Assembly: GCA_016845065.1 (NCBI GenBank)
Contig: JAERTG010000023.1
Span: 167,553 to 231,552 of the forward strand
Direction: 5' to 3'
Source: Fidelibacterota bacterium
GTDB taxonomy: Bacteria; Fidelibacterota; UBA8477; JABMPR01
DNA length: 64,000 nt
The notes under the pieces are model-generated. The model worked only from the letters and a program-made list of their open reading frames with translations. It was not told the DNA's origin and did no database searches. How positions within the stretch are numbered: position 1 is the stretch's first letter; every line of letters begins with the position of its first letter. This document shows positions 15,573 to 38,727 of the stretch, piece after piece. The position numbers and the translations under genes were made by a program.

Positions 15573-15593
15573 CCCTGCTATATCATTAACTCA

Positions 15594-16691
15594 CTAGAAC
15601 TGATATGTCAATGTAAAAGAGTTGGCATACCCTAGCAGACCCATGGATCTATAGGCATAGTCCAATGCAATTGCCTGACGCCCAAACAGCTTGTACTCGA
15701 TTCCCCCACCCCAAGTGATGGCTGAATATGGTATTTCTGAACCAAATAAATTTAGCTCTTCATCGCCATTAACTAAATACAATCCTCGCATTCCAGTTCT
15801 CAGGAACACATGTGTACCTCGAATAAACGCTAAATCGTACTGGAGTCCCAAATTGACTGATTCACTATTATTGTTTGGGTGCAAAACATCTATGGCAACC
15901 AGCAGATTGTGTTTGTGGGTATACAGCGGATATAAGGATATGCCAGCTCTGAATATTACTGGGAGGTCCCATGAATCGGTTTTGTATTCACCTTGAACCG
16001 TAGAATAATTTCCAGCTTCATCTGGTTCAATATCGATGACATTAAGCATATCAATACCAGAATACGACATTTTTGAACCATAATTGGAAATACTCATACC
16101 AATTCGCATACCCTCTTCCTGTTTACCTGTGGGACTGAAGAAGTCGGTTACGATTGAAACACCCAGATCAAGTGCCAATGCACTTGCCCCACTATGCCAA
16201 ATAGTCGATGAGATGTATTTTGTTGATACGCCAAAAGAGAACCAGTTGACGATAGAACGGGCATAGGTCAGAGACATGGCATATTCTGAGGCCTGATAAA
16301 ACTCACCTGTCCCATCCTGGTACCGTAAATTGGTGACTGGAATACTTCCAAAATCGACGTGATTCATGCTTAAGCCAATGTTACCCACATTTGGAACAGT
16401 AATAGCAACTGCGGCATAACGATTGGCAATGCCAGCAACCCAGGCTTGATCCATGACAATTAACTCGGGCTGTACCTGGAAGGCTAAACCTGCTGGGTTC
16501 CAATAAATTGAGGATATGCTTTTGCCTACGCTCACATAGGCCTCACCCATTGCTACTGCTGGTCCAATACCAATTTCCAGGAAATTGGCAGCTGTGGTTC
16601 CATATCTGTACGGTTTCTGGGCAAATAAGGAGCTAGAGACCAGCAACCCTAAAATCGTAATCTTTAAAAATGATTTCATATATGTTCTCAT
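15594..16691 (-). CDS. porV: PorV/LptO-like T9SS outer-membrane beta-barrel
   Basis: A signal peptide is present. The N-terminal motif FLEIGIGPAVAMGEAYVSV…SIYWNPAGLAF resembles the PorV family. It ends …TYQF. It overlaps the stop of the preceding 1187-aa CTD protein by 4 bp, matching porU-porV gene order. Confidence 0.5.
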   Translation of the reverse strand: MRTYMKSFLKITILGLLVSSSLFAQKPYRYGTTAANFLEIGIGPAVAMGEAYVSVGKSISSIYWNPAGLAFQVQPELIVMDQAWVAGIANRYAAVAITVPNVGNIGLSMNHVDFGSIPVTNLRYQDGTGEFYQASEYAMSLTYARSIVNWFSFGVSTKYISSTIWHSGASALALDLGVSIVTDFFSPTGKQEEGMRIGMSISNYGSKMSYSGIDMLNVIDIEPDEAGNYSTVQGEYKTDSWDLPVIFRAGISLYPLYTHKHNLLVAIDVLHPNNNSESVNLGLQYDLAFIRGTHVFLRTGMRGLYLVNGDEELNLFGSEIPYSAITWGGGIEYKLFGRQAIALDYAYRSMGLLGYANSFTLTYQF

Positions 16692-20227: not shown

Positions 20228-20228
20228 T

Positions 20229-23096: not shown

Positions 23097-23199
23097 AGGA
23101 AACTTTATTTTTGGTAAATTCACTTTCAGCGAAATCAAAGAAGCAGCTAGCCCCGGCCACACTCACATGTTTCCGGGGCTAAACTGCAGTTATTTCACC

Positions 23200-26100
23200 C
23201 TATTTAAGCAGTGTAACCTTCATCACAGACGTACCAGAAGCACGTGATACTACAACAAAGTAGATACCTGTACCAACAGAATGTCCATATGAGTTTCTTC
23301 CGTGCCATACAACATTGTAATGGCCAGCTGCATGTCTTGAATCCACAAGAGATGTAACTTTCTGACCTAACATATTGAAGATATCAATTTTAACGTCTTC
23401 TACAGCGGGAAGCTGATATTGTATGTTTACATCGGGGTTGAAAGGATTTGGATATGTATGCATCAGGAACTCGGTAGGTAGAAGAAGTTCATCTTCAACT
23501 GCCACAGCATCACATGTTCCAAACACTGCACCATCCGCATCATATTCTGTCTCGTCACCAATGGGAGTGAGAAGTTGGCGTACATCTAAGGAGACACCTT
23601 CATCAAATACCGTACACTCCAGTCCTGTCATATCCTCAAAGGTTCCAGCTCCATAAGCGAACAAGTAGTTCACAGTATCTCGGGTGGTAAGCGTGATGGT
23701 TCCACTCCAGGTACCAGCTACAGAAGTTTCTGTAAATAGAACTGGATTTGAGAAATCCCACTCATTAGCTGAATGGATTACATATGGTGAATCAGAAGCA
23801 GGATTAAATCCTGACACTGCACTCATATCGACGCTGAATGTGACGTCTACATCATGAGCCGGTGCACATGGGAAACAAGAGTTGAAGCAGTAAGCTGGTA
23901 ATACCATGTCTTCTGTTGGTGTGACTTGTCTATCACCACGAGTATAGTCTGTCGTTGGCAGACCACAGCCACCATTTACTAGCTCCTCATTTTCTTCCCA
24001 ATCACCTTCCCATCCATTGATGGCCGGTGAATTTCTGAATTTCCATGTCACTTCCATATCTCTTGGAAGTTCAAGAGTGTATTCATAAATATCGTCACCA
24101 TCTGGGTCTAACAGTTGATACCCAGTCTGATTGTCGCCAGGTAATGTTCCACCTGCGATAAACACACCTTCATCATGGACAACTTCATCCTGCATATCCA
24201 CGCGGAAAGTCACGTTTACAAGATCTACAAAACCACAACTACCATCATCAGTACACTGAGCATAGCAGGTGTTAACAGTGGTATCATTCACACCAACCTG
24301 AATGTATCTGTCATTAAAGTTATCTGGATCAGCGCAATCCTGGCCTGCAATGTTTTCTTTACCTGACCAGTCGCCTGCATCACCATTCGTGAATGTATAA
24401 TGAGTGAATTGATTATTCATCAAGGTGTAAATCAATGTATAAACACCATCATCTGCAGTTACATCGCCATGAGTTCCATCATCGTACATGGGATTATCAC
24501 CAGGCACACCAAAAGTACCGCCACCGGCCAGGAACATCCCTGTCTCGGCAACTTCGATCATTTCAGTATTCACCATAAACGTGACATCGACTACATCCGT
24601 ATCGTAATAACAGCTACCATCATCTACTGTGGCGGTTGGATCGTAGTTAAGAGCTGTTGGATCCATACAACCGAAAACATCATCAGAGTATATGGCTTTC
24701 AGGTTATCAAACCAGACAGCTCCAGTCATAACATCACCGATTTCTGTGTTCCATGGTGGTGAGACCCATTCAAATCCAAACCCGACAATTTTGTCTAGAT
24801 CCAGGAGATCATTTCCTGCAATTCCAGCCCAACCAGTACGGACAAAACCGTTAGTATATTCTTGTCCACCAGCATTGGATTCTGTTTTTACAAGCGGAAT
24901 TCTGATCTCTGACCAACCTGAACCAGCATCATCATCCAGGAAGTAATCATCCTCGATAAAGGCATAGTAGAATTCGCAACTATCTTTACTCCATTTAGTT
25001 GGATCAGGTTGATCACTAGCATCAACCAGGGTAAATCGGAGTGCCATTGAAGAGTCAATGTTGGTTGGGATGTAGTTCTGAATCTGAAAACTGAGATAAT
25101 TATGACTTGAGATATCAAGATAATCATCAGTAATATGATTCACTGAAGAGAAACCACCATATTGATAATAGTGCTCTATTGTGTAATCAAACTGGCCTGC
25201 GCCAACACCATCTTGCGGCAATCCTGCGCTTGACACGAGTGTGGAAGTAATGGAGTTGACAAGTTCGGATTCAACTGGATAGTCAAACTGCCAGAATGCA
25301 TCTGCGCCAATGGCAATATCTTCAGCAGTTTCAAAACCATTTAATACAAGATCATCAGGCATGACCCATGGTTCGCCATGAAAATAGATATTATCTAAAT
25401 AGATATCACCATTACCATCAAATTTCAATTGGTGAATATCGGTTAGAACCATACCCAGATCAGTATAATGATCTAATCTGATATCTACACTCGTCCAACC
25501 AGTTGATCCAACGGGTAAGGCAAAAGCCTGTTCCCCACTTGAGATACTGATTAGAAAAAGATTCAATGCAGTAGAGTTATCTGACCAGAAATCAACATGC
25601 AAATATCCTTTTGCAGAAACATCGTGAGCAACGCCGCCATCAGTGCTACCAATATTAATTCCCTGATAATTGAGACCAGTATAAAGCATGGTGTTGTTAC
25701 CATCAATCTGTACTTCTGATTGTACAGTTGCTTGACCCCAACCAGGATTGAAGTTCGTCCCTGCTATATCAGTGTATGCATCACTGTATATTGAAATAAC
25801 ATCAGCTTCCAATTCAGTGGGTGTGGGTGCAGCAACAGCTGGACCTTCGAGTACTTCGTCACAACCTACACATTCCATCCAACAGATGGTGTCCATCACA
25901 ACATCATTGAACAAGGCAACGACGCCATATGTAACATCACTGGGATTATCGGGATGAGGGAATGCACATGCAGATCCAACAGCTGGTCTTCCTTCAGGAG
26001 ATCCCCAGCCACCACCTAATAAATATAGAAAACGGTGAGTTCCTGCAGCTACACTTGCAGTTGCTGAATAGATGCCATCATCATTATCATCAGTAAGTTC

Positions 26101-26628
26101 CAGATCCCAGCCTGTCCAACCACCGAAATCACCAGTTGCCCAAATATTTGAACCTTCAGGTACTGTTTCTTCATTCATATCTACTATAAATGTAACATCA
26201 TAGGTATCCTGACAAGGATCACAGGAATTCCAACATGTTGTATCAGCAACAACGTCAGCATCAACAACAGTAAAACCAAAAGTGGCATCACCTTCATCGA
26301 GTGCAGAATCGCAAATTGACTGATCAATTGGTCTTCCCTCTGGGCTTCCCCAGCCACCGCCTATTAGGTATAAGTAGCGGTAAGAGCCTGGAGCAACATC
26401 AGCTATCGTTCCGGAAAAGATACCATCAGCATCAGCATCCGTAAGCTCAGTTCCCCAACCACTCCAGCCATCGACTTCACCAGTAATCCAAATACTGGTT
26501 CCTTCGGGTACGCTAGCACGGGCTGCATCAACTGCAATTGTCACATTGTATGTCTGTGCGGTTAGTAACACAGGTAACAACAGTAGCATTGCAATTGCTA
26601 ATTTTGTTAAGTAACGCTTAGGTAGCAT
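23200..26628 (-). CDS. multi-domain secreted glycan-binding protein (starch-binding-like beta-sandwich repeats + shared 150-aa domain) with T9SS CTD
   Basis: An RBS (ggagga) precedes the internal ATG. Five V.VTF.VDM… beta-sandwich repeats resemble the CBM20 fold. The GWGSPEGRP motif occurs twice. A roughly 150-aa domain is homologous to one in ORF 56014..58344. The C-terminus is …YPNPFNP… CTD. Confidence 0.6.
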   Translation of the reverse strand: MLPKRYLTKLAIAMLLLLPVLLTAQTYNVTIAVDAARASVPEGTSIWITGEVDGWSGWGTELTDADADGIFSGTIADVAPGSYRYLYLIGGGWGSPEGRPIDQSICDSALDEGDATFGFTVVDADVVADTTCWNSCDPCQDTYDVTFIVDMNEETVPEGSNIWATGDFGGWTGWDLELTDDNDDGIYSATASVAAGTHRFLYLLGGGWGSPEGRPAVGSACAFPHPDNPSDVTYGVVALFNDVVMDTICWMECVGCDEVLEGPAVAAPTPTELEADVISIYSDAYTDIAGTNFNPGWGQATVQSEVQIDGNNTMLYTGLNYQGINIGSTDGGVAHDVSAKGYLHVDFWSDNSTALNLFLISISSGEQAFALPVGSTGWTSVDIRLDHYTDLGMVLTDIHQLKFDGNGDIYLDNIYFHGEPWVMPDDLVLNGFETAEDIAIGADAFWQFDYPVESELVNSITSTLVSSAGLPQDGVGAGQFDYTIEHYYQYGGFSSVNHITDDYLDISSHNYLSFQIQNYIPTNIDSSMALRFTLVDASDQPDPTKWSKDSCEFYYAFIEDDYFLDDDAGSGWSEIRIPLVKTESNAGGQEYTNGFVRTGWAGIAGNDLLDLDKIVGFGFEWVSPPWNTEIGDVMTGAVWFDNLKAIYSDDVFGCMDPTALNYDPTATVDDGSCYYDTDVVDVTFMVNTEMIEVAETGMFLAGGGTFGVPGDNPMYDDGTHGDVTADDGVYTLIYTLMNNQFTHYTFTNGDAGDWSGKENIAGQDCADPDNFNDRYIQVGVNDTTVNTCYAQCTDDGSCGFVDLVNVTFRVDMQDEVVHDEGVFIAGGTLPGDNQTGYQLLDPDGDDIYEYTLELPRDMEVTWKFRNSPAINGWEGDWEENEELVNGGCGLPTTDYTRGDRQVTPTEDMVLPAYCFNSCFPCAPAHDVDVTFSVDMSAVSGFNPASDSPYVIHSANEWDFSNPVLFTETSVAGTWSGTITLTTRDTVNYLFAYGAGTFEDMTGLECTVFDEGVSLDVRQLLTPIGDETEYDADGAVFGTCDAVAVEDELLLPTEFLMHTYPNPFNPDVNIQYQLPAVEDVKIDIFNMLGQKVTSLVDSRHAAGHYNVVWHGRNSYGHSVGTGIYFVVVSRASGTSVMKVTLLK

Positions 26629-26686
26629 TATGCTTCCTCCTTCTTTGGTTATGTGAATCATTATAATTCCTTCATTCCTAACATAT

Positions 26687-28294
26687 TCATGCAAATATTA
26701 CCCAGAGTACTAGAACAGTTAAAACCAGTACAATGGATGCTATCACATTAATTTTATTCCATCTAGAGTTCTGATTATCCATGCGTCGACTCATATCAGT
26801 CTGCATCTCAGAGGCCGTCGCAAAAGTAAGTCCGGAGATGCGTTGTCGATCTGGTATGGAAGTGAACAAACTAACTATCACCACGACGCCCACAGAAATA
26901 ACAAACAAGAATACAGCAAAATGTAAAAAGTTCATTGTGGCGAACCATTCAACACTCCCCATTGGTCTGCCTGATTTTGCCATTATCTCGAGAATGAATC
27001 GTGAGGCTCCTAAAACAGCGCCAACTCCAAGTGCAGATATCGCTCCCTGAGCATTTGCCCGACTCCAGAAAATACCAAGAATAAATACTGCAGCAATGGG
27101 AGGGCTGATGTAGGCTTGGACACTTTGGAGATAAACGAAGAGCTGGCCACTTAGCATTGTGATGAGTGGAACGGAGAGAACACCTAAAATGACCATCACT
27201 GTTGTTGCTAGGCGACCAACCAGAACCAGTTCAACTTCTGAGGAATTTGGTCTAAAGTTTTTATAAAAATCAATTGTAAATAAGGTTGAGGTACTATTAA
27301 AAACACTGGCTAGAGATGACATCAATGCCGCCAGTAGGCTGGCAATCACAATACCTTTGACTCCCGAGGGTAGCAAATAACTAGTGACCAGTGTCGGATA
27401 GGCTTCATCACCTGTAGTACCAAAAAGAGCGGCTGCAATTAAACCGGGGAGAACCAGTATAAATACCGGTAAAATTTTGAGGAAGCCCGCCAGGATGGCC
27501 CCTGAGCGGGCGTGGTTAATATTCTTTGCGCTCAGAACTCGCTGAACGATAAATTGATCCGTACACCAATACCAGATACCCAATATCGGCGCTCCGAAGA
27601 TGATTCCTGTCCAGGGGAAGTCTGGATGATCAAACGCCTTGAACATTTGGAAGTATTCTGGGGGTAGCTTGGCCTGAAGTCCAGTAAATCCTCCTACCTC
27701 ATTTAAGCCAAGGAGCGTCAAGGCAATTGCACCCCCAATAAGAATGAAAGCCTGGACAAGCTCCGTATAGATCACAGCGCTGAGACCGCCAGCAATGGTA
27801 TAAATCCCTGTGACAATAATAAGCACAATGGCTGAGGTCATCATGTCCCAACCTAGAATCTTATTGAGCAACAATCCGCCTGCAAAAAGAGTGACGGAGA
27901 TTTTTGTAATGACATAAGCAATGATGGATACTGAAGTGAGATACATGCGACTGGCTTTTCCGTATCGTTTTTCTAAGAATTCAGGCATGGTAAAAACACC
28001 TGATTTCAAATAGAACGGGACAAAAATCCATCCCAGGAAAAGCACCATAAAGGCAGCCAGCCATTCAAAATGACCCACAGCCAACCCACTACTTGAACCT
28101 GTTCCAGCTAACCCAATAAAATGTTCGCTTGAGATGTTAGAGGCAAAAAGGGAAGCACCAATCGCAAGCCAGCCAACATTTCGACCTGCCAGGAAATATT
28201 CCGTGCTATCATTGGTCCGACGGGAAAAGTAAATTCCGATTCCCACTACGAGGAGGAAGTACAGAATAATGACAGCGAAATCCAAACCGCTCAT
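26687..28294 (-). CDS. sodium:solute symporter (SSS/SGLT family)
   Basis: Multiple TM helices are present. The N-terminal SSS signature is FLAGRNVGWLAIGASLFASNISSEHFIGLAG. Confidence 0.85.
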   Translation of the reverse strand: MSGLDFAVIILYFLLVVGIGIYFSRRTNDSTEYFLAGRNVGWLAIGASLFASNISSEHFIGLAGTGSSSGLAVGHFEWLAAFMVLFLGWIFVPFYLKSGVFTMPEFLEKRYGKASRMYLTSVSIIAYVITKISVTLFAGGLLLNKILGWDMMTSAIVLIIVTGIYTIAGGLSAVIYTELVQAFILIGGAIALTLLGLNEVGGFTGLQAKLPPEYFQMFKAFDHPDFPWTGIIFGAPILGIWYWCTDQFIVQRVLSAKNINHARSGAILAGFLKILPVFILVLPGLIAAALFGTTGDEAYPTLVTSYLLPSGVKGIVIASLLAALMSSLASVFNSTSTLFTIDFYKNFRPNSSEVELVLVGRLATTVMVILGVLSVPLITMLSGQLFVYLQSVQAYISPPIAAVFILGIFWSRANAQGAISALGVGAVLGASRFILEIMAKSGRPMGSVEWFATMNFLHFAVFLFVISVGVVVIVSLFTSIPDRQRISGLTFATASEMQTDMSRRMDNQNSRWNKINVIASIVLVLTVLVLWVIFA

Positions 28295-28622
28295 TCAGTA
28301 CTCCAGGAAAAATTGATGATTTGTGCAATAAATCTCATTGGTTAATACTATATAAGTCAAATACCAGACCACTTTTAGCCATACCAATACAGAGCGAGAT
28401 AATCAGAAGAGAATATCGATTTTTAAGTCAGTTATTGTAGGATACGGAGGTGTTTGTATAACAAGAGTTTACAAATACAAATTCAGATAATATTCTGTAA
28501 ATTTTTGTCTTAAATTATTTTTTCTTCATGTAGAATTCGAAGGTCTGTAAATCAGGAGAGTCACTTATTATAGGAATAATAATATTATTATTATAATAAG
28601 TGATATATGATAATGATCAGAT

Positions 28623-30068
28623 TTATTTAAGCCCAAGTTCCTTGCACATCCGATGAAAATTTGGTGGTGCGAGTCCCAGTTTTCCAGCAGCCTCTGTGTC
28701 AGTTCGGCTGTGCTGACGGACAAATTCAAAATACTGTCTGCGAAAGTTTTGTTCTACATCTTTTAGCGGTTTTATGCCCTCTGTGGAGAATACTGGATTT
28801 GTGATGCCATTAGTTGAATCTTGTGCTTGCACGTCCATGGCAAGTTCCACAATATCACGTGTTATGGCATCGCTACTCAGTATAACTAGTCTTTGTGTAA
28901 CATTCTTCAGCTGACGCACATTCCCTGGCCAATGGAATTGTTCTAAAAGGGACCAGGCACCATCTGTTATAACAGGTAAAACAATACTCAGATCCCGACA
29001 ATGATGACCAACAAAATAGTCAATTAGAATGCGGATATCTTCTTTGCGTTCCTTTAAGGCCGGTGCCTGGATATTGAGTATATTCAAACGGTAGTAAAGA
29101 TCTTCTCGAAAGAGATTATTCTTCATTCGTTCTTTTAAATTTTTATTTGTGGCAGCTATTACCCTCACATCAACACGATGACTCTTCTTCCGACCAATCT
29201 TATCCATTTCTCCTGTCTCAAGAACTCGCAGCAGTTTGGCCTGTGCTTGATATGGTAGTTCAGATATTTCATCCAGGAAAATGGTTCCATGATTTGCCTG
29301 TTCGAAGAGACCAGCCTTATCTTCTTTCGCTCCGGTGAATGCACCTTTAATAAATCCGAATAGTTCACTCTCGATTAGCTCATCAGGGATGGCGGCACAA
29401 TTAACAGTGACAAAATTTTCATATCGTCGGCTGCTTTGATAGTGGATGTTCCTGGCTATCAACTCCTTCCCTGTTCCAGATTCACCAATGATAAGCACAT
29501 TTGCGTGAGTCGCTGAATATTTGGTAATACGTTCGCGAACCTTCAGAATACTTTCTGAATCACCCAACATAGGTCGTTCCTGAATAATTCGAGCAATTTT
29601 ATTATCCAACCTGCTCTGTGAACGCATGCGCTCTTGCTCCAACTGCTTTTTTTCTGCTGCATTCATAATTGTCAAAATGAAGTCAGTGGGCTGGTAGATA
29701 AACTCCTCAATATCAGAAGGATATTTTGTACCAAACCAATAGGCACCACTCTCAATCAATTGATTGGCAAAATGCAAGTCGGTCTGATTGATTGTCATTT
29801 TTGTGATAACGATGATCTGGATAGTGGGATCAACTTTTTTCAAGCGTTTTATGAGTCGTTCTCCATATAACCCACCTGATATCTGGTAATCCAGAATGGC
29901 TACATCATACGGTCCCTTTTCCTCAAGCGTGTGAAGGGCATCTTCACCTGTGGAAACGATGTCCCGAATACTGATTCTCTCTCGGTAGGGTGCGATGGTA
30001 TTTTTAATGCGGCGAACGTCAAACTCTTCATCTTCAATGAGGAGTACTCTTATTTGATCCTGTTCCAT
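28623..30068 (-). CDS. sigma-54-dependent response regulator (NtrC family: REC + AAA+ + Fis HTH)
   Basis: The receiver domain carries the phospho-acceptor Asp. Walker A is GESGTGKE. The GAFTGA sigma-54 contact motif is present. There is a C-terminal HTH. Confidence 0.85.
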   Translation of the reverse strand: MEQDQIRVLLIEDEEFDVRRIKNTIAPYRERISIRDIVSTGEDALHTLEEKGPYDVAILDYQISGGLYGERLIKRLKKVDPTIQIIVITKMTINQTDLHFANQLIESGAYWFGTKYPSDIEEFIYQPTDFILTIMNAAEKKQLEQERMRSQSRLDNKIARIIQERPMLGDSESILKVRERITKYSATHANVLIIGESGTGKELIARNIHYQSSRRYENFVTVNCAAIPDELIESELFGFIKGAFTGAKEDKAGLFEQANHGTIFLDEISELPYQAQAKLLRVLETGEMDKIGRKKSHRVDVRVIAATNKNLKERMKNNLFREDLYYRLNILNIQAPALKERKEDIRILIDYFVGHHCRDLSIVLPVITDGAWSLLEQFHWPGNVRQLKNVTQRLVILSSDAITRDIVELAMDVQAQDSTNGITNPVFSTEGIKPLKDVEQNFRRQYFEFVRQHSRTDTEAAGKLGLAPPNFHRMCKELGLK

Positions 30069-30071
30069 ATT

Positions 30072-31550
30072 CTATCCTGTTGGAGCCTGCAATGTGAAGC
30101 AGGCACCTCCTTCTGCTTTGTTATGTGCATCCACCACCCAATCGCATCTGCGGCTAATCTCCCATGCCAGGTAGCAACCATAACCAGAGTTCTGACTTCC
30201 ATCTTTGGTACTCACAGATTCTTTAAATATGGCCTTTTGGCCCTGTTCGTCAACTTGTAACAATTCAGATGATAAACCTTTTCCATTATCGCAAATCTCA
30301 ATCATGAGGATTTTTTTAGCTGCATCATGTTTTGTTTTAATCTTAAGAATAAGGTCATGATCAACATTGTGCTCTATAGCGTTTTGAATCAATGGCTCGA
30401 TGATCTCCCACGCCACATATTCATTCACATGCAGGATAGGAATATCCTCTGCAAAATCGAGTTCAACACTGACGGCATTGCTTTCACTCGCCTTATAAAC
30501 TCGTTGAAATATGTTTTCTACAACAAACTGAATAACCTCATTAATATTGGTTTGAAATATGGGGTTACGGATGACATGAAGGGGTGGATCGTAGGTTTTC
30601 ATGTCATAAATCACCCGTGACACAAAATTTGCATATTTTGTGACGCGGTTGCGCGTTTCATCCAGATTTTTATCCCTCAAGCCTCTGAGATCCTCTTTAA
30701 TAAATCCCATGACCTTTTCCGCTTTATGATGGGTGTGATAAATACGTTTTGTAAAGAGGGATTCTTTCTGGTGCTCTACTTGTTCTCGAAGCTGTTTTGA
30801 GCGTTGGTCAAACAATTGATGTTGGACCTCATCCCGTTCTTGAGCGGTGTAGGAGTAAATGAAAAACATTGCTAAAAATCCAAACAGAATGAGACCGGTA
30901 AATAAAATTCCACTTTGACTATATGCAGATTCAATAAGTGCGAGAAATCCTGCAACATCAGGAGTCACCCGCATATAGGCTGCACCTGCAATTTCACCCC
31001 TGTCATAAAAGGGAACCAACACATGGAAGGTGTTGTTGCCTTCAAGTGAGCTGACAATTTGTTCCTCATCCACTAAGACCTGTGAATGTTCATGATAATA
31101 AAGAATAGCATTTGAAGCAGATGGTTGAATGTCAATAACCCGGATTGAATCTGGCTCAAGATAAAGATCATAGATTTCAGCTCCGTCTCTCAGGGCAGTG
31201 ACCCTACTCCCCTGATTGACAAGGAGATAGACTTCATCAATATTCCTTTGGAGCATTTGCTGGCTTAATAATTTATCAAAAGACTCGATGGTCTTAATTC
31301 TGTTCTCACCGTTTATCGGGATATCCTGCCGTCCTTGCTCAATGAGAAGTTCAAGTGCAGTAGTCGTTAAATCAGCAACCCTTTCAGCAGAGTCACGTCG
31401 GTAGTATTCCATAGCCTGTTGAAATATTTGATTGGTTGATTGACTGTTGATAAATGAAAGGGCAGTTTGAAATACCACTACCACAATAAACAACACCAGG
31501 ATGTGTTGAATTTCAAAATGGTAGTTTTCAAATTTTTGAGTCAGTTTCAA
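30072..31550 (-). CDS. sensor histidine kinase with periplasmic domain
   Basis: Two TM helices flank a sensor domain of about 200 aa. The C-terminal HATPase_c has G-boxes (DNGKGL, GYGCYLAW). The gene overlaps the upstream SBP gene by 4 nt and stops 3 nt before the RR gene. Confidence 0.7.
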   Translation of the reverse strand: MKLTQKFENYHFEIQHILVLFIVVVVFQTALSFINSQSTNQIFQQAMEYYRRDSAERVADLTTTALELLIEQGRQDIPINGENRIKTIESFDKLLSQQMLQRNIDEVYLLVNQGSRVTALRDGAEIYDLYLEPDSIRVIDIQPSASNAILYYHEHSQVLVDEEQIVSSLEGNNTFHVLVPFYDRGEIAGAAYMRVTPDVAGFLALIESAYSQSGILFTGLILFGFLAMFFIYSYTAQERDEVQHQLFDQRSKQLREQVEHQKESLFTKRIYHTHHKAEKVMGFIKEDLRGLRDKNLDETRNRVTKYANFVSRVIYDMKTYDPPLHVIRNPIFQTNINEVIQFVVENIFQRVYKASESNAVSVELDFAEDIPILHVNEYVAWEIIEPLIQNAIEHNVDHDLILKIKTKHDAAKKILMIEICDNGKGLSSELLQVDEQGQKAIFKESVSTKDGSQNSGYGCYLAWEISRRCDWVVDAHNKAEGGACFTLQAPTG

Positions 31551-32908
31551 AAAGATTGACCTCTTTTTAGCACATCGTCGATATCATTTTGCGCCTTGGC
31601 AAGCCCTGCTTCAACCTCAATCTCACCAGACATAATCTGGTGTAAGTGCGTTGAAAGAATATCAGATATGAGGGTGTAATGATCCAAGGTCGGTCTATGC
31701 AGCCCCTTCTGCATCATTTTCTGAATCAACCGCAATCTCTCTTGGCGTGGTCCAGATTCAGCCCGACTATAAAATTCTCGTTGAATAGGAAGAAGTCCCT
31801 CACTTTCATAGAATATTCTTTGTCCCTCCATAGAGGCAGCAAACTTCATGAATTCAATGGCTGCATTTTTGACTGGAGAATGTTTGGAAAGCATCATGTT
31901 CCAACCGCCAAATACCGGTGTCGATTCACCTCCCTCAAAGTGAGGCAAGGGAGCTATTTCCAATTTTTCAAACAATTCAGGATCAAATCGCTGATAATTC
32001 TCATTATTCATCGTAGGCCAGCCACGGACAAAGGGTATGTCGTGAGCCAGTGCGAAACGGATACAGTCATCCTCTGTCATACTCAATGCTTCAACAGGTG
32101 CAAAATTTGTGCTGATCATTTCACGCATGAAATGGGTTCGCTCGATGATTAGTGGATGTGTCAGGTCAATCAGCTTTCCAGAAGTTTCATCTTCCAGTGT
32201 TCGCCCGATGATTTCATTGAAATTACAAATCAGTCCTTCATAGGCGACTGCCTGTGGGATGAATATAGGTTTATCTGTGAAATATCTCTCCCTGAGTTCA
32301 AGCAATTCTTCCCAGGATATGGATTGATTTATACGGTCCACAATGGCCTCGCCGTCTTCTAATGCGAGGATCATATCTTTACGATAATAAAGGGCACCAA
32401 TATCTGTATACAACGGAACGGCATATAAGATGTCATTGACATAACAAGTTTGGAGTGGTTGAGGGACTAATTTCTTTAAAAACTGAGGTGCAAAATAAGG
32501 CGTAAGCGGTTCGGCCCATTTAGTAAATCGAGGTACCCATATCAAATCGACGGAAAAAACATCAATTCTACTGCTACGACTTCTTAAGTTTCTGGCTATC
32601 AGCTCCTTACGTTGATTCGTGTTGAATTTAGAAAAGGGTAAATCAATGGCTATTACTTCTATTTCCCCTCTATAAAGCTCATTAAATTGCCTGATTATTT
32701 CAGCATGACCCACCCCAATATTGTCTGCAAAATAAACTCGCTCAATTCCATCCGTGTTTAGCGGATTTGGACCAAGAGGAAATGATGAAATCAAGAATGA
32801 TATGAGGAAGATTAGTGCCCCAATTGAAAACAGAAAGGGTAGACTTGTGGAGAGTGTTTTTAACCGAAGTTTTTTGGGCGGCTCTTTTTGTAAATTCGTA
32901 TCATTCAT
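31547..32908 (-). CDS. membrane-anchored extracellular solute-binding protein (SBP_bac_1-like) co-operonic with HK/RR
   Basis: There is an N-terminal TM anchor. SBP-like blocks (GEIEV…IDVFSVD…W…) are present. No ABC permease is adjacent. Confidence 0.5.
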   Translation of the reverse strand: MNDTNLQKEPPKKLRLKTLSTSLPFLFSIGALIFLISFLISSFPLGPNPLNTDGIERVYFADNIGVGHAEIIRQFNELYRGEIEVIAIDLPFSKFNTNQRKELIARNLRSRSSRIDVFSVDLIWVPRFTKWAEPLTPYFAPQFLKKLVPQPLQTCYVNDILYAVPLYTDIGALYYRKDMILALEDGEAIVDRINQSISWEELLELRERYFTDKPIFIPQAVAYEGLICNFNEIIGRTLEDETSGKLIDLTHPLIIERTHFMREMISTNFAPVEALSMTEDDCIRFALAHDIPFVRGWPTMNNENYQRFDPELFEKLEIAPLPHFEGGESTPVFGGWNMMLSKHSPVKNAAIEFMKFAASMEGQRIFYESEGLLPIQREFYSRAESGPRQERLRLIQKMMQKGLHRPTLDHYTLISDILSTHLHQIMSGEIEVEAGLAKAQNDIDDVLKRGQSF

Positions 32909-33215
32909 ATTATTGAAATGATAATAATTGGCATATCAAAACAATACAAGCTCTAACTATTAAATTGCAGGGAAATCAGTCCACGGCTTTGAATGAGAAA
33001 TTAATTTCACCAAAATAGGATATGAAATCCAATCCAATCTCCGCCTTACGAAATCTAAATTGCCATCAATTCAATGGTGTTATTGACATAAACACAAAGA
33101 GTTACACACATTTTCCTGAGAATAGATTTCCGATTAAATAATTTATCTGGATCTTCATCTGCCAAAGATTTCATTTCGCAGATAGTAGAGGGTATAAAAC
33201 TGATGTAGGAGTGGC

Positions 33216-33233
33216 ACCCAATTTGAATACATA
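33216..33233 (+). promoter_or_regulatory. sigma-54-like -24/-12 element (TGGCAC-N5-TTGAA) upstream of the GH3 gene
   Basis: A TGGCACccaatTTGAA element lies about 50 nt upstream of the GH3 ATG. The -12 element has GA rather than the consensus GC, so the match is weak. Confidence 0.2.
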
Positions 33234-33283: not shown

Positions 33284-35131
33284 ATGTTTACGAGATCGAT
33301 ATTTCTGAAAATTTTTGTGCTTGGATTCATGCTTCAACTAGTAGTCACCTGCAATTCCACCGAACCAATTGTCAAACATGTATCCGTGACGGGGAAAAGT
33401 GTAGAGAACATTGTTGAATTGATGACATTGGCAGAAAAAGTTGGACAAATGACTCAGGCTGATAGGCGCTATCTAATTGATGAAGCTGATATTACGGAAT
33501 TGCACTTAGGATCCCTTCTCAGTGGAGGTGGATCAACCCCTGAAATTAATAATCCCACATCCTGGGCTGATATGGTTGATGGTTATCAGGCTCTAGCTGC
33601 CAAATCTCGTTTGGGAATTCCTCTCATGTACGGTATTGATGCAGTCCATGGACACAGCAATGTAGTGGGTGCTACTATCTTTCCACATAATATTGCCCTT
33701 GGAGCCACAGGTAATCCTGAACTGGTAAAGGAAATTGCCCACATCACCGCAAAAGAAGTTCGAGCAACGGGGATTAATTGGACATTTGATCCCTGCGTCG
33801 CTAACTCAAGAGACGAACGTTGGGGACGCGCCTATGAGTCCTATGGAGAGGACCCAGCTCTCCTAGCCGCTCTCGGACAGGCCCAGGTTGAGGGTTATCA
33901 GGGAGCATCACTTAGCGCTCCTGATGCAATTGTGGCATGTACGAAACATTACATTGGAGATGGCGCTCCCACCTGGACAACAGGCAATAATGGTAAAATT
34001 GATCGCGGAGATGCTCAAATTTCCGAAGATGAATTAAGAGCCCTTCATTTACCACCCTACCAGGCTGCTATTCAAGGTGGGACAGCAACCATCATGGCTT
34101 CATATAACAGCTGGAATGGTGAAAAACTTCATGGGCAAAAATATCTCATGACCGATGTACTCAAAGGAGAGCTTGGGTTTCAGGGTTTCATCGTAACAGA
34201 TTGGGCGGGCATTGATGAGCTCCCAGGTGATTATAAGAGTGATATAGTTGAGTCAATCAACGCAGGTGTTGATATGGTTATGGTTCCTGGAGATACGAGC
34301 AAAGATGGGTACACATACAGAGAATTTATCACCAAGTTGACCGAAGCCATCAATGAAGGCTTGATAGAAATGTCTCGCATCAATGATGCTGTAACCAGAA
34401 TCTTGAATGTTAAAAAGAGTATGGGTCTGTTGGATGCGCCCTACAGCAACGATCGCAATCTCATCTCCCACGTAGGTTCACCCGAGCATCGAGAAGTGGC
34501 CCGGCAAGCTGTCCGTGAATCTGTAGTATTGCTAAAGAACAACAGCGTCTTACCATTATCCAAAGAGCTCTCAACACTTGTTGTAGCTGGTCGTGGGGCC
34601 AATGATGTTGGCATGCAATGTGGTGGCTGGACCATTTCCTGGCAGGGTGGTATGGGCGATATCACTCCCGGTACTACCGTCTTGGAAGGCGTTCAAGCAA
34701 GCGTTTCTTCATCAACCCAGGTGATTCACTCGCCTGATGGAACAGCTGCTGCCAGTGCAGATGCTGTAATAGTTGTTGTTGGAGAGACACCCTATGCTGA
34801 AATGCATGGAGATAGGGATAATCTAGTCCTATCAGACGAAGATTTGGCAGTTATTAACACAGTAAAGACCAGTGGAAAACCTATGGTGGTCGTGCTCCTT
34901 TCAGGACGTCCTATAATCGTCACCGATATCATTGAAGAGGTGGATGCTTTGCTAGCTGCATGGCTGCCTGGAACAGAAGGCAATGGAATCTCCGATGTGA
35001 TTTTTGGTGATTATTCACCTACTGGAAAACTCTCAGTGACCTGGCCGAAAGACATGAGTCAAATACCAATTAACCAGGGTGATAATAATTACTCACCTCT
35101 CTTTCCTGTAGGATATGGAATGAGTTATTAG
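33284..35131 (+). CDS. GH3 beta-glucosidase lipoprotein
   Basis: The lipobox is VVTCNS. GH3 N-domain motifs are present (KVGQM, GIDAVHG). The catalytic nucleophile motif is GFIVTDW. A C-terminal alpha/beta sandwich domain follows. Confidence 0.85.
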   Translation: MFTRSIFLKIFVLGFMLQLVVTCNSTEPIVKHVSVTGKSVENIVELMTLAEKVGQMTQADRRYLIDEADITELHLGSLLSGGGSTPEINNPTSWADMVDGYQALAAKSRLGIPLMYGIDAVHGHSNVVGATIFPHNIALGATGNPELVKEIAHITAKEVRATGINWTFDPCVANSRDERWGRAYESYGEDPALLAALGQAQVEGYQGASLSAPDAIVACTKHYIGDGAPTWTTGNNGKIDRGDAQISEDELRALHLPPYQAAIQGGTATIMASYNSWNGEKLHGQKYLMTDVLKGELGFQGFIVTDWAGIDELPGDYKSDIVESINAGVDMVMVPGDTSKDGYTYREFITKLTEAINEGLIEMSRINDAVTRILNVKKSMGLLDAPYSNDRNLISHVGSPEHREVARQAVRESVVLLKNNSVLPLSKELSTLVVAGRGANDVGMQCGGWTISWQGGMGDITPGTTVLEGVQASVSSSTQVIHSPDGTAAASADAVIVVVGETPYAEMHGDRDNLVLSDEDLAVINTVKTSGKPMVVVLLSGRPIIVTDIIEEVDALLAAWLPGTEGNGISDVIFGDYSPTGKLSVTWPKDMSQIPINQGDNNYSPLFPVGYGMSY

Positions 35132-35172: not shown

Positions 35173-38100
35173 ATGATCCCTCAACCAATGGCATTATTCA
35201 GAGCAGCTGGTTTCCTGGTAGCAATAGTACCCTCTCTTCTCTTGGGTCAATCCTTGATTCTTAATGAAATTGTTGCTTCTAACCGAGCAAGTTTATACGA
35301 TGAGGATGGTGACACACCAGATTGGATTGAAATATACAATACTTCCTCATCTGCAGTCAGCTTACAAGGTTTTGGTCTTTCTGATGATATTAACAATCCA
35401 TATAAATGGATATTTGGAGCTGGTGAAATAGATGGCGATAGTCATGCCATTATTTTTGCATCAGATAAGGACAGGCAAGCCTTAAACCTAAACTGGGACC
35501 TCATATTCGAAGAAGGTTCTCTGTGGCGCTATTTTGTTGGTACTTCAAATCCACCTTCAAATTGGAACTCATTGAATTTTAATGAAAATCAATGGCTAGA
35601 GAGTGTCAGCGGGTTTGGTTACGGGGACAATGATGATAATACGATAATTCCGTCGACCATGTCCGTTTATCTGCGGAACACATTCACTATCTCTGATACC
35701 TCCTCGGTCCCCGGTCTCCTTTTTCACATCGATTATGATGATGGATATGTCGCCTACCTCAATGGTGTTGAATTCTCCAGAGAAAACATGGGTGAGCCAG
35801 GAAGCGAGGTAAATAATAACACACCGGCAACAACCTATACCGAACCATCATTGCCTGACAATGTTGATCTACCCTTTACCCTCATCTCCAGTGATTTAAT
35901 GGTGGAGGGTGACAACGTCATTGCAGTTGAAGTGCATAATCACAGCCTGTCCTCATCTGACATGACTGCAATCCCATTTCTGAGTATAGGCGAACTGGAT
36001 ACACCTGATTCTCCATTACCTTCCTTTTTAGAGTCACCTGCTCAAAGCCAATTTCACACCAATTTTAAAGTTAATAGTGATGGTGAGTTGGTCATGTTAA
36101 CGAGTCCTGATGGTGGGAGTCTAGATTCAATTCGAGTACCTGAGCTGCCCTCAGACATCAGTTGGGGTAGAGAGCCTGATGCCAGTGGAAATATGTTCTA
36201 TTTCAATCCACCAACTCCTGGTGAGACGAATGTGGGAGGATTCACTGTCCCTGCCGAACCACCTGTTCTGTCTCCTGGACCGGGATTTTATAACTTCGGT
36301 ATCTCGCTGAGCATGGGCGCAGTGCCACAAGGGCGGGTTTATAAATATACACTGGATGGAAGCATTCCGAATCTGAGCTCAGCAACCTATACCACACCGT
36401 TATCTATCACTCAAACCACAGTAGTTCGAGTCTTAACATGCGCCCCTGATGGCACGAATCCCACTCTAAATTCATTTAGTTATTTCATTAATGAGGAACC
36501 CGACCTACCTGTCATGTCTCTCATTTTTGAACCGGGTGCATTTTTTGATAATGATACTGGACTGTATGTGATGGGTTCAGATGCATCTCCATCCTTCCCC
36601 CATTTTGGAGCAAATTTCTGGGAAGACTGGGAAAGGCAAGTTCACGTCGAATATTTTGATGGTGGGAATGAGCTCAGCTATGCGGCTTCTGCAGGCGTGA
36701 AAATATTTGGGGGCTGGAGTAGAGGGAATCCACAAAAGTCTCTTTCATTATTTGCCCGTGGACGCTATGGAACCAGCAAATTTGAGTACCCTTTCTTTCC
36801 GGACCTGGGCATCGATAAATTCGAGGCTATTGTGCTCAGAAATTCTGGAAATGATTGGAATATGTCAGGCTATAGAGATGGTTTTATGACAAGCCTTGTC
36901 TCTGAGCGGGATGTTGACAAGCAAGCGTTTCAGCCAGTCGAAGTCTATTTAAATGGTGACTATTGGGGAATTTATAACTTGCGAGAGAAGGTAAACGAGC
37001 ATTTTGTGTCAAGTCATCACGATGTTGATAATGATGATATCGATTTATTGGCCTTGGATGGGAATGAGGTGGTGCATGGTGAAAACAACCATTATGTGGA
37101 CTTAATTGATTACATCAACTCTCACACACTTAACTCTGATCTCGATTTTGAGTACGTTGAAGAACGCGTGGATATTGATAATTTTATTAATTACCAATTG
37201 GCCCAGATCTACTTCGATAACCAGGACTGGCCTGGAAATAATATCAAGTTTTGGCGCTCCAGGCTGCCCGGTGGCAAATGGCGTTGGATATTGTATGATA
37301 CTGATTTTGGTTTTAGCATCTGGAGTAATAATAACTATATAAGAAATACTCTGGAGTTTGCCACAGATCCAAATGGACCAGATTGGCCCAATCCACCATG
37401 GTCTACTCTCCTCCTTCGGAAATTTTTAACGAACCCAGGGTTCGAGCGGAATTTCATCCTCACCGCTTGTGACCTTTTAAATCAGCCATTCATATACGAG
37501 CAGGTTGAGTCAGCACTCAATGAGCATCAACAATGGTTATTACCATCCCTTCCAGACCATATTTCGCGGTGGAATCACATGAGTCTTCCCAACTGGTACA
37601 ACGAAGGGATGATCATGGATAACTTTGCTTTGAATAGACCCTATTATATGCGCAATCACTTTCGAAGTAAATTTAACCTTGGTGCAGACAGTGAACTTCA
37701 GGTCAATGTTGAACCAGCAGGCGCTGGAAAAGTGCGTGTCCATTCCATCGTCCCGGATAACTATCCATGGGTGGGAACTTATTTTTCATCGGTTCCTGTT
37801 GACGTCCGCGCCATTGCCCTTCAGGGATATCAATTTTCACACTGGCAGAATAGGCTGGTAACCGATGTGGATTTGACCATTAGCATGGCATCGGATGTTG
37901 AATTAACGGCTATATTTGTTCCTGTTTCTCCCGATGATGGTGCTCTGGTTATCAACGAAATCAATTATAACTCCCTGAATGATTCTGACACCAAGGATTG
38001 GATCGAATTATTTAATGGCACGCCTGAGGCTGTCGATCTGACAGGATGGGCAGTCAGCGATGACAACGATGATAACTGGTTTGTGTTGTCCGAAATATCA

Positions 38101-38727
38101 CTTGCTCCTGATGCATATTTGATTGTGACTAGCGATAGCCTCGCCTATAGAAGTATTCACGGGAGTGATGCTCGGATTGTTGGTGATCTGGATTTCAATT
38201 TCAGCAATGGAGGAGAATTGATTCGCCTCTTTAACTCAGATCAAATAATTGTGGATAGTGTACGCTATGATGATGAGGATCCATGGCCTACTGAGCCTGA
38301 TGGAGATGGTCCTACATTAGAGTTGACATTCCCTACTCTGGACAATGGTTTGAGTACGAGTTGGGCTGTTTCAGATAACCTGGGGACGCCTGGTGCTCAA
38401 AATGGCAGCTTTGCTGTTCCATCAGCATTCAACAATGACAACGGACCTACGGAATTTCGAATCGGAATGGCCTTCCCAAATCCATTCAATGCAATGATCA
38501 CCATCCCTTACACCGTTGCCGAAATCGGGTTATTTCAGATCGATATATTTGATCTCAGAGGTCGCATGATTCATTCAGAGAGCATCAATTCATCACGAAG
38601 TGGTTCAGGAAATTATCATTGGGATGGAAGGAATGAGCATGGGCTGGCACAAAGTTCTGGAATGTACGTGGTTCGATTAACTCAAAACGAACTTACTGCC
38701 AGTATAAAAATCGCGCTCCTCCGATAG
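35173..38727 (+). CDS. giant CotH-kinase-like protein with two lamin-tail domains and T9SS CTD
   Basis: Two LTD motifs are present (LILNEIVASN…DWIEIYN, LVINEINYNS…DWIELFN). The central region has CotH-like blocks (LRNSGNDWN…VYLNGDYWGIYNL). The C-terminus is …FPNPFNAM… CTD. Confidence 0.55.
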   Translation: MIPQPMALFRAAGFLVAIVPSLLLGQSLILNEIVASNRASLYDEDGDTPDWIEIYNTSSSAVSLQGFGLSDDINNPYKWIFGAGEIDGDSHAIIFASDKDRQALNLNWDLIFEEGSLWRYFVGTSNPPSNWNSLNFNENQWLESVSGFGYGDNDDNTIIPSTMSVYLRNTFTISDTSSVPGLLFHIDYDDGYVAYLNGVEFSRENMGEPGSEVNNNTPATTYTEPSLPDNVDLPFTLISSDLMVEGDNVIAVEVHNHSLSSSDMTAIPFLSIGELDTPDSPLPSFLESPAQSQFHTNFKVNSDGELVMLTSPDGGSLDSIRVPELPSDISWGREPDASGNMFYFNPPTPGETNVGGFTVPAEPPVLSPGPGFYNFGISLSMGAVPQGRVYKYTLDGSIPNLSSATYTTPLSITQTTVVRVLTCAPDGTNPTLNSFSYFINEEPDLPVMSLIFEPGAFFDNDTGLYVMGSDASPSFPHFGANFWEDWERQVHVEYFDGGNELSYAASAGVKIFGGWSRGNPQKSLSLFARGRYGTSKFEYPFFPDLGIDKFEAIVLRNSGNDWNMSGYRDGFMTSLVSERDVDKQAFQPVEVYLNGDYWGIYNLREKVNEHFVSSHHDVDNDDIDLLALDGNEVVHGENNHYVDLIDYINSHTLNSDLDFEYVEERVDIDNFINYQLAQIYFDNQDWPGNNIKFWRSRLPGGKWRWILYDTDFGFSIWSNNNYIRNTLEFATDPNGPDWPNPPWSTLLLRKFLTNPGFERNFILTACDLLNQPFIYEQVESALNEHQQWLLPSLPDHISRWNHMSLPNWYNEGMIMDNFALNRPYYMRNHFRSKFNLGADSELQVNVEPAGAGKVRVHSIVPDNYPWVGTYFSSVPVDVRAIALQGYQFSHWQNRLVTDVDLTISMASDVELTAIFVPVSPDDGALVINEINYNSLNDSDTKDWIELFNGTPEAVDLTGWAVSDDNDDNWFVLSEISLAPDAYLIVTSDSLAYRSIHGSDARIVGDLDFNFSNGGELIRLFNSDQIIVDSVRYDDEDPWPTEPDGDGPTLELTFPTLDNGLSTSWAVSDNLGTPGAQNGSFAVPSAFNNDNGPTEFRIGMAFPNPFNAMITIPYTVAEIGLFQIDIFDLRGRMIHSESINSSRSGSGNYHWDGRNEHGLAQSSGMYVVRLTQNELTASIKIALLR

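Follow-up and report, generated by a model that had tools for sequence, protein, structure and literature searches.

What is controlled by a sugar-binding protein (SBP) that is encoded together with a histidine kinase and a sigma-54-type response regulator, and with no sugar ABC transporter nearby? We addressed this question in a 64,000-nt stretch of contig JAERTG010000023.1 (hereafter the window), from assembly GCA_016845065.1 of a Fidelibacterota/Marinimicrobia bacterium (Neomarinimicrobiota, FCB group), for which an original prediction had proposed such a triad next to a sodium/solute symporter gene. According to Pfam and NCBIfam the window is a beta-glucan/laminarin locus, with glycoside hydrolase (GH) genes of families GH16 (two), GH5 (two), GH3, GH30 and GH17, a TonB-dependent receptor, several proteins with type IX secretion system (T9SS) tails, an MFS_2 transporter, a ROK regulator and a weak GH149-like match. 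Our results make it likely that SBP, kinase and regulator form a three-component sugar-sensing system that controls both flanking operons. The four genes all lie on the minus strand, where they had been predicted:

31547-32908, minus strand: SBP gene, 453 aa
30072-31550, minus strand: histidine kinase gene, 492 aa, TTG start
28623-30068, minus strand: NtrC-type response regulator gene, 481 aa
26687-28294, minus strand: SGLT-like symporter gene, 535 aa

Gene content and conservation of the triad

The stop codon of the SBP gene overlaps the TTG start of the kinase gene by 4 nt (TTGA), and 3 nt separate the kinase stop codon from the ATG of the regulator gene; both junctions are as originally described. 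The symporter ATG lies 328 nt beyond the regulator stop codon, and the symporter gene is therefore a neighbour only, not coupled to the triad. Its product matches the Pfam family SSF (4e-93) and is SGLT-like, with matches to human SGLT1 (3.7e-132) and Vibrio vSGLT (2.8e-84). Gene content, junctions, domain integrity, synteny, the lack of ABC genes near the triad and the conservation of promoter and palindrome positions were all computed directly.

We scanned for relatives of the SBP in one genome per species, which gave 497 loci, and fetched 80 of them, from Marinimicrobia, Melioribacteraceae/Ignavibacteriota, Calditrichota, KSB1, Cloacimonadota, Zhuqueibacterota and metagenome-assembled genomes (MAGs) labelled Bacteroidota. 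The order SBP, kinase, regulator on one strand was found in essentially all 80 loci where the contig was long enough, mostly with overlaps or gaps of a few nt at the junctions, and separate look-ups agreed. The claim that no cognate ABC permease or ATPase accompanies the SBP held both in the window and beyond it. The only ABC genes of the window form a MacAB/HlyD-type efflux set (2077-6509), and a Pfam scan of the open reading frames (ORFs) of the window found no MalFG-type permease and no sugar ABC ATPase. A regular expression for the EAA loop of permeases, which the E. coli MalF and MalG sequences would both match, had no match within 10 kb on either side in any of the 80 loci, where there was only one ABC ATPase-like ORF; nor were ABC families among the Pfam families of genes downstream of the regulator in the relatives.

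Sequence and predicted structure identify the SBP as a CUT1-type, class II two-lobed sugar-binding protein and not as one of the non-binding look-alikes that had been considered at the outset. Its Pfam matches to SBP_bac_1 (1.2e-13) and SBP_bac_8 exceed the gathering score, and its closest homologues, with 86-90% identity, are labelled Marinimicrobia. Searched against the PDB, a profile of the SBP family matched best the Thermococcus litoralis trehalose/maltose-binding protein (1eu8, 9.2e-68), followed by T. maritima MalE3, the Thermus alpha-glycoside-binding protein (6j9w), SmoF and LpqY. The AlphaFold2 model (pLDDT 88.9) consists of a helix at residues 23-42, a disordered linker of low confidence and a standard two-lobed SBP fold, for which Foldseek returned MalE3, the trehalose/maltose-binding protein, the alpha-glycoside-binding protein and LpqY with target-normalised TM-scores of about 0.8. 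Residues R49, D118, W287 and R356 of 6j9w, which were mutated by the depositors, align pairwise with R100, D169, W336 and R405 of the SBP; that they contact the sugar we infer only from the titles of the PDB entries. Since all four aligned residues are invariant across 63 family members, the pocket looks intact and glucoside-directed.

The N-terminus of the SBP carries a hydrophobic stretch of 21-23 residues behind basic residues and no lipobox. Such a hydrophobic segment is present in 62 of the 63 homologues and a lipobox in one of them. Together with the modelled helix, this suggests that the SBP is likely anchored in the membrane by an N-terminal transmembrane helix, with cleavage by signal peptidase I as a possible alternative.

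The kinase comprises a first transmembrane helix, a periplasmic PDC/sCache-like domain of about 177 aa (residues ~36-213), a second transmembrane helix, a coiled coil, an H-box and a HATPase_c domain (Pfam 4.4e-9, 37.2 bits against a cut-off of 26.4). The H-box IYHTHHKAEKVM, within the near-invariant motif LFTKRIYHTHHKAEKVMGFIKEDL, contains H272, H274 and H275 and stands 115 residues ahead of the N-box asparagine (N390). The H-box, the N-box (N390), G1 (DNGKG) and G2 (NSGYGCY) are conserved over 72 orthologues; from the conserved His-rich motif at this distance, a divergent DHp domain is likely. The sensor domain was modelled confidently by AlphaFold2 (pLDDT 87.4, pTM 0.84), beginning with two helices, of which the first is long; two strands come next, then two more helices, three strands and one closing helix. 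The best fold matches were extracellular PAS/PDC domains, namely the PAS domain of WalK and those of CqsR and of Cache-type chemoreceptors (Tlp3).

By its domains and motifs the regulator classifies as an NtrC-type sigma-54 enhancer-binding response regulator, with Pfam matches to Response_reg (39.8 bits against a cut-off of 30.2), Sigma54_activat (6.7e-70, 234.6 bits) and AAA_lid_14. NCBIfam returned NorR/NtrC/AtoC-like matches, every one below the equivalog cut-off. Receiver residues D60, T89 and K115 were read from the sequence and are conserved in orthologues, and the Walker A motif GESGTGKE and the GAFTGA motif are intact and invariant in them, so that the functional-looking AAA+ domain that had been expected stood up on alignment. 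The putative C-terminal helix-turn-helix (HTH) segment (...KLGLAPPNxHRMCKELGLK / ...KLGLAPPNFHRMCKELGLK) is near-invariant in 66 orthologues; the last 26 residues of the regulator appear Fis-like by eye, and no Pfam HTH family matched at E <= 0.001. RpoN with all three of its Pfam domains is annotated in Marinimicrobia MAGs, and rpoN is encoded on one of the triad-bearing contigs (L052).

The genes beside the triad in relatives are largely concerned with sugars. The gene after the regulator encodes an SSF symporter in 29 of 54 loci, and in the remaining ones a TonB receptor, a protein with T9SS tail or carbohydrate-binding module (CBM) of family CBM9, or a GH5, GH3 or GH16 enzyme. Further on there are T9SS-tailed proteins (25/56), CBM9 proteins, TonB receptors, MFS transporters, trehalase, GH3 and GH65. 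Orthologous Marinimicrobia loci (SBP identity 57-90%) invariably share a core of a divergent GH3 gene, the triad and the SGLT-like symporter gene, with GH16, GH30, GH17 and MFS_2 near it. Every one of them whose contig extends far enough upstream keeps the divergent GH3 gene, as do several distant clades, and the triad of another clade is accompanied by a TonB receptor, an MFS transporter and either GH65 or trehalase. These recurrent sugar-related neighbours therefore suggest that the triad is a general regulator of glucoside/glucan loci, with a ligand specificity that probably differs between clades. In two loci from MAGs labelled Bacteroidetes (L004 and L005), a divergent pair of genes for an SBP-less dCache_1 kinase and a sigma-54 response regulator adjoins the triad (at 4136-7312 in L004), and two sigma-54 two-component systems may converge there on one sugar locus.

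Conserved DNA elements on both sides of the triad

The search for sigma-54 promoters and regulator sites that the original prediction had called for fails in the window if GG-N10-GC is taken literally: there is no such site in the gap between regulator and symporter genes, and a weak one at 33148, in the divergent region, was judged not real. Comparison with relatives brought out conserved promoter-like elements and palindromes on both sides of the triad. Two alignments were used, of the spacer between the regulator and symporter genes in 12 Marinimicrobia loci (A2, mean column identity 58%) and of the spacer between the SBP and GH3 genes (A3). The conserved elements are the following:

28585-28599: palindrome TTATTATAATAATAA, proposed regulator site (upstream activating sequence, UAS), copy 1, in a conserved island of A2
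28565-28579: palindrome TTATTCCTATAATAA, proposed UAS, copy 2, in a conserved island of A2
28453-28475: clade-specific palindrome TTTGTAAA-N7-TATACAAA, about 95 nt upstream of the putative symporter promoter (A2, Marinimicrobia loci)
28356-28371, minus strand: putative sigma-54-type promoter TGGTCTGGTATTTGAC, with -24 TGG and -12 TTGA, 61 nt before the symporter ATG
32910-32924: third TTATY-N5-RATAA copy TTATCATTTCAATAA, abutting the SBP ATG
32909-32950, minus strand: near-invariant block of 42 nt before the SBP ATG (A3)
33076-33110: weakly conserved block TTAAGT..TGTAAATAT..GATAAC, about 100-135 nt upstream of the putative GH3 promoter (A3)
33212-33227, plus strand: putative sigma-54-type promoter TGGCACCCAATTTGAA, 56 nt before the GH3 ATG (A3)

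Alignment A2 contains three conserved islands, namely TTATYATAATAATAATATTATTATTCCTATAATAAG directly after the regulator stop codon, TTTGTAAAC-N-GTTATACAAA, and TGGTCTGGTATTTGAC. In the last of these, the TGG and TTTG columns are invariant in the 12 diverged loci. When all clades are taken together, 41 of 55 loci have TGG-N8-TTG on the coding strand within 300 nt before the gene that follows the regulator, and 3 of 55 have it on the opposite strand. At these symporter-side sites TTG is followed by T (23 cases), A (14), C (5) or G (3); further loci have canonical sites of the TGC type, and one symporter-side site is a perfect TGGCACGATCCTTGCA. On the GH3 side, TGGCA and TTG are invariant in the 12 loci of A3. 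A site in the GH3 direction is present in all 19 loci with a divergent GH3 gene and has the canonical form TGGCAY-N5-TTGC in 13 of them, TTGA being confined to the window and its closest relatives. We interpret both elements as sigma-54 promoters, and the strongest argument for this assignment is the positional equivalence of the GH3-side element to the canonical sites of relatives.

The window has four intergenic sites of the form TGGYMY-N5-TTG, the two putative promoters (28356-28371, minus strand; 33212-33227, plus strand) and two others:

6615-6630, minus strand: TGGYMY-N5-TTG site, about 105 nt upstream of the HlyD/ABC/MacB efflux operon
58758-58773, minus strand: TGGYMY-N5-TTG site

They read TTGA, TTGA, TTGT and TTGT, never with C after TTG. 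Along with the base counts at the symporter-side sites of the family, this suggests that a non-canonical sigma-54 -12 element is accepted, or is favoured, in these lineages.

The TTATYATAATAATAATATTATTATTCCTATAATAAG island consists of two 15-bp palindromes of the form TTATY-N5-RATAA, 20 bp apart from centre to centre, whose arms covary in relatives (TTATC...GATAA vs TTATT...AATAA). This palindrome was found in 43 of 55 spacers downstream of the regulator (with two or more copies in 22) vs 6 of 163 intergenic regions elsewhere in these loci, at densities of 4.2 and 0.32 per kb, respectively. It also occurs in 22 of 47 regions upstream of the SBP gene, and beside the SBP start in 18 of the 19 loci with a divergent GH3 gene. 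The commonest inverted repeat of the regulator-downstream spacers in distant clades is again this palindrome, often as GTTATCA-N3-TGATAAC, and where the divergent spacer is short (160-220 bp) there is no other palindrome from the GH3 promoter to the start of the SBP gene. We assigned it to the response regulator because the regulator with its HTH is the only DNA-binding element co-inherited with the loci; TTATY-N5-RATAA is thus a candidate UAS, predicted to be bound by the regulator. A Fur-like or other AT-box regulator was considered for this palindrome and set aside.

The block at 32909-32950 contains the third palindrome and a possible -35/-10 pair, TTGTAT-N17-TATTAT, and is probably the triad's own promoter plus operator. 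The sequence does not fit a promoter of the Bacteroidetes type with -7 TAnnTTTG. The block is almost invariant amid diverged DNA, and neither a normal leader nor a Shine-Dalgarno sequence can be accommodated beside it; the mRNA of the triad may be leaderless or nearly so. The palindrome TTTGTAAA-N7-TATACAAA occurs once in the window; a bending protein or a second regulator are candidates for its role. The block at 33076-33110 is possibly a degenerate half-site of the regulator.

Proposed mechanism and its alternatives

We propose that an uncleaved N-terminal helix holds the SBP at the periplasmic face of the inner membrane, where it would bind a glucoside that is present in the periplasm once laminarin fragments have been imported by the TonB-dependent receptor. 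For laminaribiose or short beta-1,3-gluco-oligosaccharides as the ligand we see roughly an even chance, whereas glucose and, to the same degree, some other glucoside are less probable candidates. The liganded SBP would then dock on the PDC-like periplasmic domain of the kinase, presumably by direct contact, and alter kinase activity through either activation or relief of inhibition. The kinase would autophosphorylate on one of the IYHTHHKAEKVM histidines and pass the phosphoryl group to D60 of the regulator, which would bind the two tandem TTATY-N5-RATAA copies after its own stop codon and the copy that abuts the SBP start. Its GAFTGA-containing AAA+ domain would open the sigma-54 promoters at 28371-28356, driving the genes for the SGLT-like symporter, a surface glycan-binding protein, the TonB receptor, GH16 and GH5, and at 33212-33227, driving those for GH3 and the CotH/LTD protein. 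The palindrome over the putative promoter of the triad may provide autoregulation.

SBP-dependent signalling has been reviewed for LuxP/LuxQ, TorT/TorS, HptA/HptS, ChvE/VirA and AioX/AioS, as well as for BctC/BctE, CBP/ChiS, GltB/GtrS and XylFII/LytS (PMC8050422). The system that appears closest to the triad in logic and gene order is CuaD-CuaS-CuaR (CuaDSR) of Ruminiclostridium cellulolyticum, in which a tethered, cellobiose-specific SBP binds the extracytoplasmic domain of the kinase and the operon lies just upstream of its target (PMC10384115). Both have a dedicated tethered SBP as the first product of an SBP-kinase-regulator operon directly upstream of the induced operon (PMC10384115, PMC5663094), and a kinase with two transmembrane helices and an unannotated extracytoplasmic domain; the signal of CuaDSR is a glucan-derived disaccharide, as is proposed here. 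They differ in that CuaDSR operates in a monoderm, with a lipoprotein as SBP (CuaD), a HAMP-containing kinase (CuaS), a YesN/AraC-type regulator (CuaR) and ordinary promoters, whereas the triad has a transmembrane-helix anchor and a sigma-54 AAA+ output in a diderm FCB host. CuaDSR controls an ABC importer plus a phosphorylase, and the triad would control a symporter, a TonB receptor, T9SS proteins and glycoside hydrolases. In XylFII-LytS-YesN of Clostridium beijerinckii, a transport-independent SBP and the extracytoplasmic domain of the kinase form a sugar-sensing complex; unlike the triad, this system has a Peripla_BP-class SBP, a LytS-type kinase, an AraC-type regulator, a monosaccharide ligand and an ABC target.

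AioX-AioS of Agrobacterium tumefaciens shares with the triad a periplasmic SBP used for signalling only and a kinase with an sCache-like sensor domain (PMC8050422). Its SBP, however, is of the phosphonate-binding class and has no sequence relationship to that of the triad, its ligand is arsenite and its target arsenite oxidase. AioR is a sigma-54 activator, and none of the other reviewed systems is known to have that output. In CBP-ChiS (Vibrio) and GltB-GtrS (Pseudomonas aeruginosa) a periplasmic sugar SBP likewise informs a kinase, the signal being a polysaccharide breakdown product or glucose (PMC8050422), and GltB is of the SBP_bac_1 class, like the SBP of the triad. Unlike the latter, their SBPs feed, and are encoded with, ABC transporters, and they use other types of kinase and regulator and no sigma-54. 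LuxP-LuxQ and TorT-TorS, which the original prediction had taken as models, are valid analogies for the principle of an SBP-dependent kinase (PMC8050422) but are more distant than CuaDSR, XylFII-LytS-YesN or AioX-AioS-AioR. They differ from the triad in their Peripla_BP SBPs, hybrid kinases, non-sugar ligands and lack of sigma-54. The hybrid two-component and SusR-type regulators of Bacteroides polysaccharide utilization loci also switch on a TonB-receptor glycan locus in response to a periplasmic oligosaccharide signal; there, all functions reside in one protein, the output is of the AraC type and the locus contains SusD. The triad, by comparison, divides the functions among three proteins and has a sigma-54 output, and nothing SusD-like turned up in those window ORFs that were scanned. 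We found no description in the literature searched of the triad or of laminarin regulation in Marinimicrobia, in keeping with the earlier view that such a circuit was uncharacterised for laminarin, and the Caldithrix abyssi genome paper does not mention the triad.

Several observations weigh against the proposed mechanism. Many of the loci compared are close relatives and hence not independent. The closest solved relatives of the SBP bind alpha-glucosides and not beta-1,3-glucans. In the kinase, Pfam returned no match to HisKA, the one expected domain that was missed (SBP_bac_1/8, HATPase_c and Sigma54_activat were all recovered), and a PDB search with a profile of the kinase family aligned the ATPase domain only, so that the phospho-acceptor histidine was assigned solely by position and conservation; the fold matches of the sensor domain are weak (E ~5e-4, TM-score ~0.5). 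Scanned strictly for sigma-54 sites (TGGCACG-N4-TTGCW, GG and GC obligatory), the window yielded matches in coding regions and nothing intergenic near the triad, and loose TGG-N8-TTG sites are not enriched in the intergenic DNA of the window (6 of 73 matches). As the window alone gives no support by scanning, the promoter assignment is based on conservation. At both the symporter and the GH3 sites the -12 element of the window reads TTGA where the consensus is TTGC, which is why the GG-N10-GC scan fails on the window alone. Finally, it is conceivable that a different regulator binds the AT-rich palindrome.

The division of labour between SBP and kinase can be drawn differently. The kinase might sense the sugar directly through its PDC-like domain, with the SBP acting as an affinity enhancer or negatively, such that the apo-SBP locks the kinase off until ligand frees it, as proposed for CBP-ChiS. 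PDC/Cache domains often bind small ligands, ligand-binding chemoreceptor domains are among the fold matches of the kinase, and the two-component part of CuaDSR perceives cellobiose even by itself, with CuaD raising sensitivity (PMC10384115). On the other hand, the isolated sensor domain of CuaDSR bound no sugar, and the co-inheritance of the SBP with the kinase in every locus examined, with an invariant pocket, would be hard to explain if the SBP were dispensable; we regard direct sensing as unlikely. It is also very improbable that the SBP serves mainly as receptor of an ABC importer encoded elsewhere and signals by moonlighting, as in GltB-GtrS and ChvE-VirA. Although its nearest solved relatives are all ABC-transporter receptors, no permease or ATPase was found within 10 kb in the 80 loci of several phyla, the SBP gene always overlaps or abuts the kinase gene, 62 of 63 homologues have a transmembrane-type anchor and not a cleavable signal or lipobox, and the local inner-membrane transporter is the symporter.

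The DNA elements are likewise open to other assignments. TTATCA..TGATAA resembles the AT-rich boxes of other regulators, and the TTTGTAAA palindrome lies at a classical enhancer distance, ~95 nt upstream of the promoter; the response regulator might thus bind TTTGTAAA-N7-TATACAAA, and TTATY-N5-RATAA might belong to a more global AT-rich-box regulator. We give this little credence, since TTATY-N5-RATAA tracks the triad across phyla, a range over which the HTH of the regulator is near-invariant, and is the sole palindrome between GH3 promoter and SBP start in the divergent regions of 160-220 bp, whereas the TTTGTAAA palindrome is limited to one clade. That the TGG...TTG elements are not sigma-54 promoters at all, and that the regulator, like some relatives of NtrC, uses the housekeeping sigma factor, would agree with the absence of the -12 C in the window and at most symporter-side sites. 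It would be highly surprising, however, given the intact and invariant GAFTGA motif, the canonical TGGCAY-N5-TTGC at the homologous GH3-side position in 13 of 19 loci, the one perfect TGGCACGATCCTTGCA on the symporter side and the fixed spacing and strand.

Laminarin is one of the ocean's largest carbon fluxes, and Marinimicrobia are abundant and essentially uncultured. The proposed circuit is explicit, with sensor, kinase, activator, a probable DNA site and two target promoters, and about 500 species-level genomes of the FCB group carry the module beside genes for the use of sugars. It would extend SBP-dependent kinases to a sigma-54 output over TonB-receptor/T9SS loci with no ABC transporter involved, and the SBP is a possible biosensor scaffold for laminarin fragments. 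No principle is overturned, as every part has precedents and the mechanism is as expected. More tentatively, in a reading that may well not hold, the triad could be the main regulator class of TonB-receptor/T9SS glycan loci in the FCB phyla outside Bacteroidia (Marinimicrobia, Ignavibacteriota, Calditrichota, KSB1 and others), replacing the SusR-type regulators, hybrid systems and extracytoplasmic function (ECF) sigma factors of Bacteroidia. Its SBP pocket would then have been retuned among beta-glucan, alpha-glucoside/trehalose and other loci, and a relaxed -12 element (TTGT/TTGA) would be tolerated. In that case it is through the triad that abundant, uncultured marine bacteria would switch on their response to laminarin.

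Proposed target operons and other features of the window

The genes proposed to be under control of the triad, and two large products of the symporter side, are as follows:

9847-26694, minus strand: probable rest of the symporter operon (same strand, short gaps or overlaps; Pfam)
33284-35131, plus strand: GH3 beta-glucosidase-type gene (Pfam), lipoprotein-like signal LVVTC
35173-38727: CotH/LTD T9SS protein gene, after GH3
23200-26694, minus strand: large protein of 1164 aa with repeated starch-binding-like modules
16688-20251, minus strand: large protein of 1187 aa, no Pfam match

The genes of 9847-26694 encode the T9SS-tailed, CBM-like 1164-aa protein, the TonB-dependent receptor, the 1187-aa protein, a PorV-like protein, a 506-aa protein, two GH16 proteins and a GH5-CBM6 protein. 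It is probable that the symporter operon reaches through this whole region. A scan for terminators and sigma-70 promoters over 8700-28650 gave matches at or below chance.

The T9SS-exported GH16, GH5 and CBM-like proteins would work at the cell surface, the TonB receptor would bring oligosaccharides in, the GH3 enzyme with its lipoprotein-type signal would free glucose outside the cytoplasm and the SGLT-like symporter would take it up. Such a layout, deduced from its parts, accords with a periplasmic sensor that detects a laminarin fragment. A TonB receptor with CarboxypepD_reg is present in the window, and the ORFs scanned against Pfam include no SusD-like protein. The receptor is flanked by the two large T9SS-tailed or T9SS-related proteins (23200-26694 and 16688-20251), where Bacteroidia would have SusD/E/F. 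CBM9-containing proteins are found at the position of the large T9SS proteins in relatives, and these proteins may be surface glycan-binding partners of the receptor.

Three further regions of the window deserve mention:

45056-55950, plus strand: second beta-glucan sub-cluster
7202-8664, minus strand: VTC-domain and DUF4956 genes (polyphosphate-related families)
58480-58775: non-coding stretch with tRNA-like pieces

The second sub-cluster encodes a GH2-like TIM barrel, MFS_2, GH30, GH17 and a ROK-family regulator with an HTH, and has a weak match to a GH149-like beta-1,3-glucan phosphorylase. It contains no TTATY-N5-RATAA and no TGG-N8-TTG site; with a ROK regulator of its own and no sites of the type found at the triad, the locus therefore appears to be under two separate control systems. 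The VTC-domain and DUF4956 genes come after the glycoside hydrolase genes and share their strand, and two related loci have such genes downstream of the triad as well.

On the plus strand of the non-coding stretch (~58663-58745) we found a T-arm, GGTTCGAATCC, with a long variable arm and an unpaired 5' acceptor strand, while the minus strand (~58560-58520) has a T-arm/acceptor-like GGCGGTTCAAATCCGCC with a strong hairpin and a T-run behind it. ARAGORN predicted no gene within 58480-58775, and Rfam gave no match at the gathering score and just a 25-bit tRNA-Sec-like match. The sigma-54-like site at 58773-58758 (minus strand) is directed into this stretch, which could represent tRNA remnants, att-like scars or an unrecognised small RNA.

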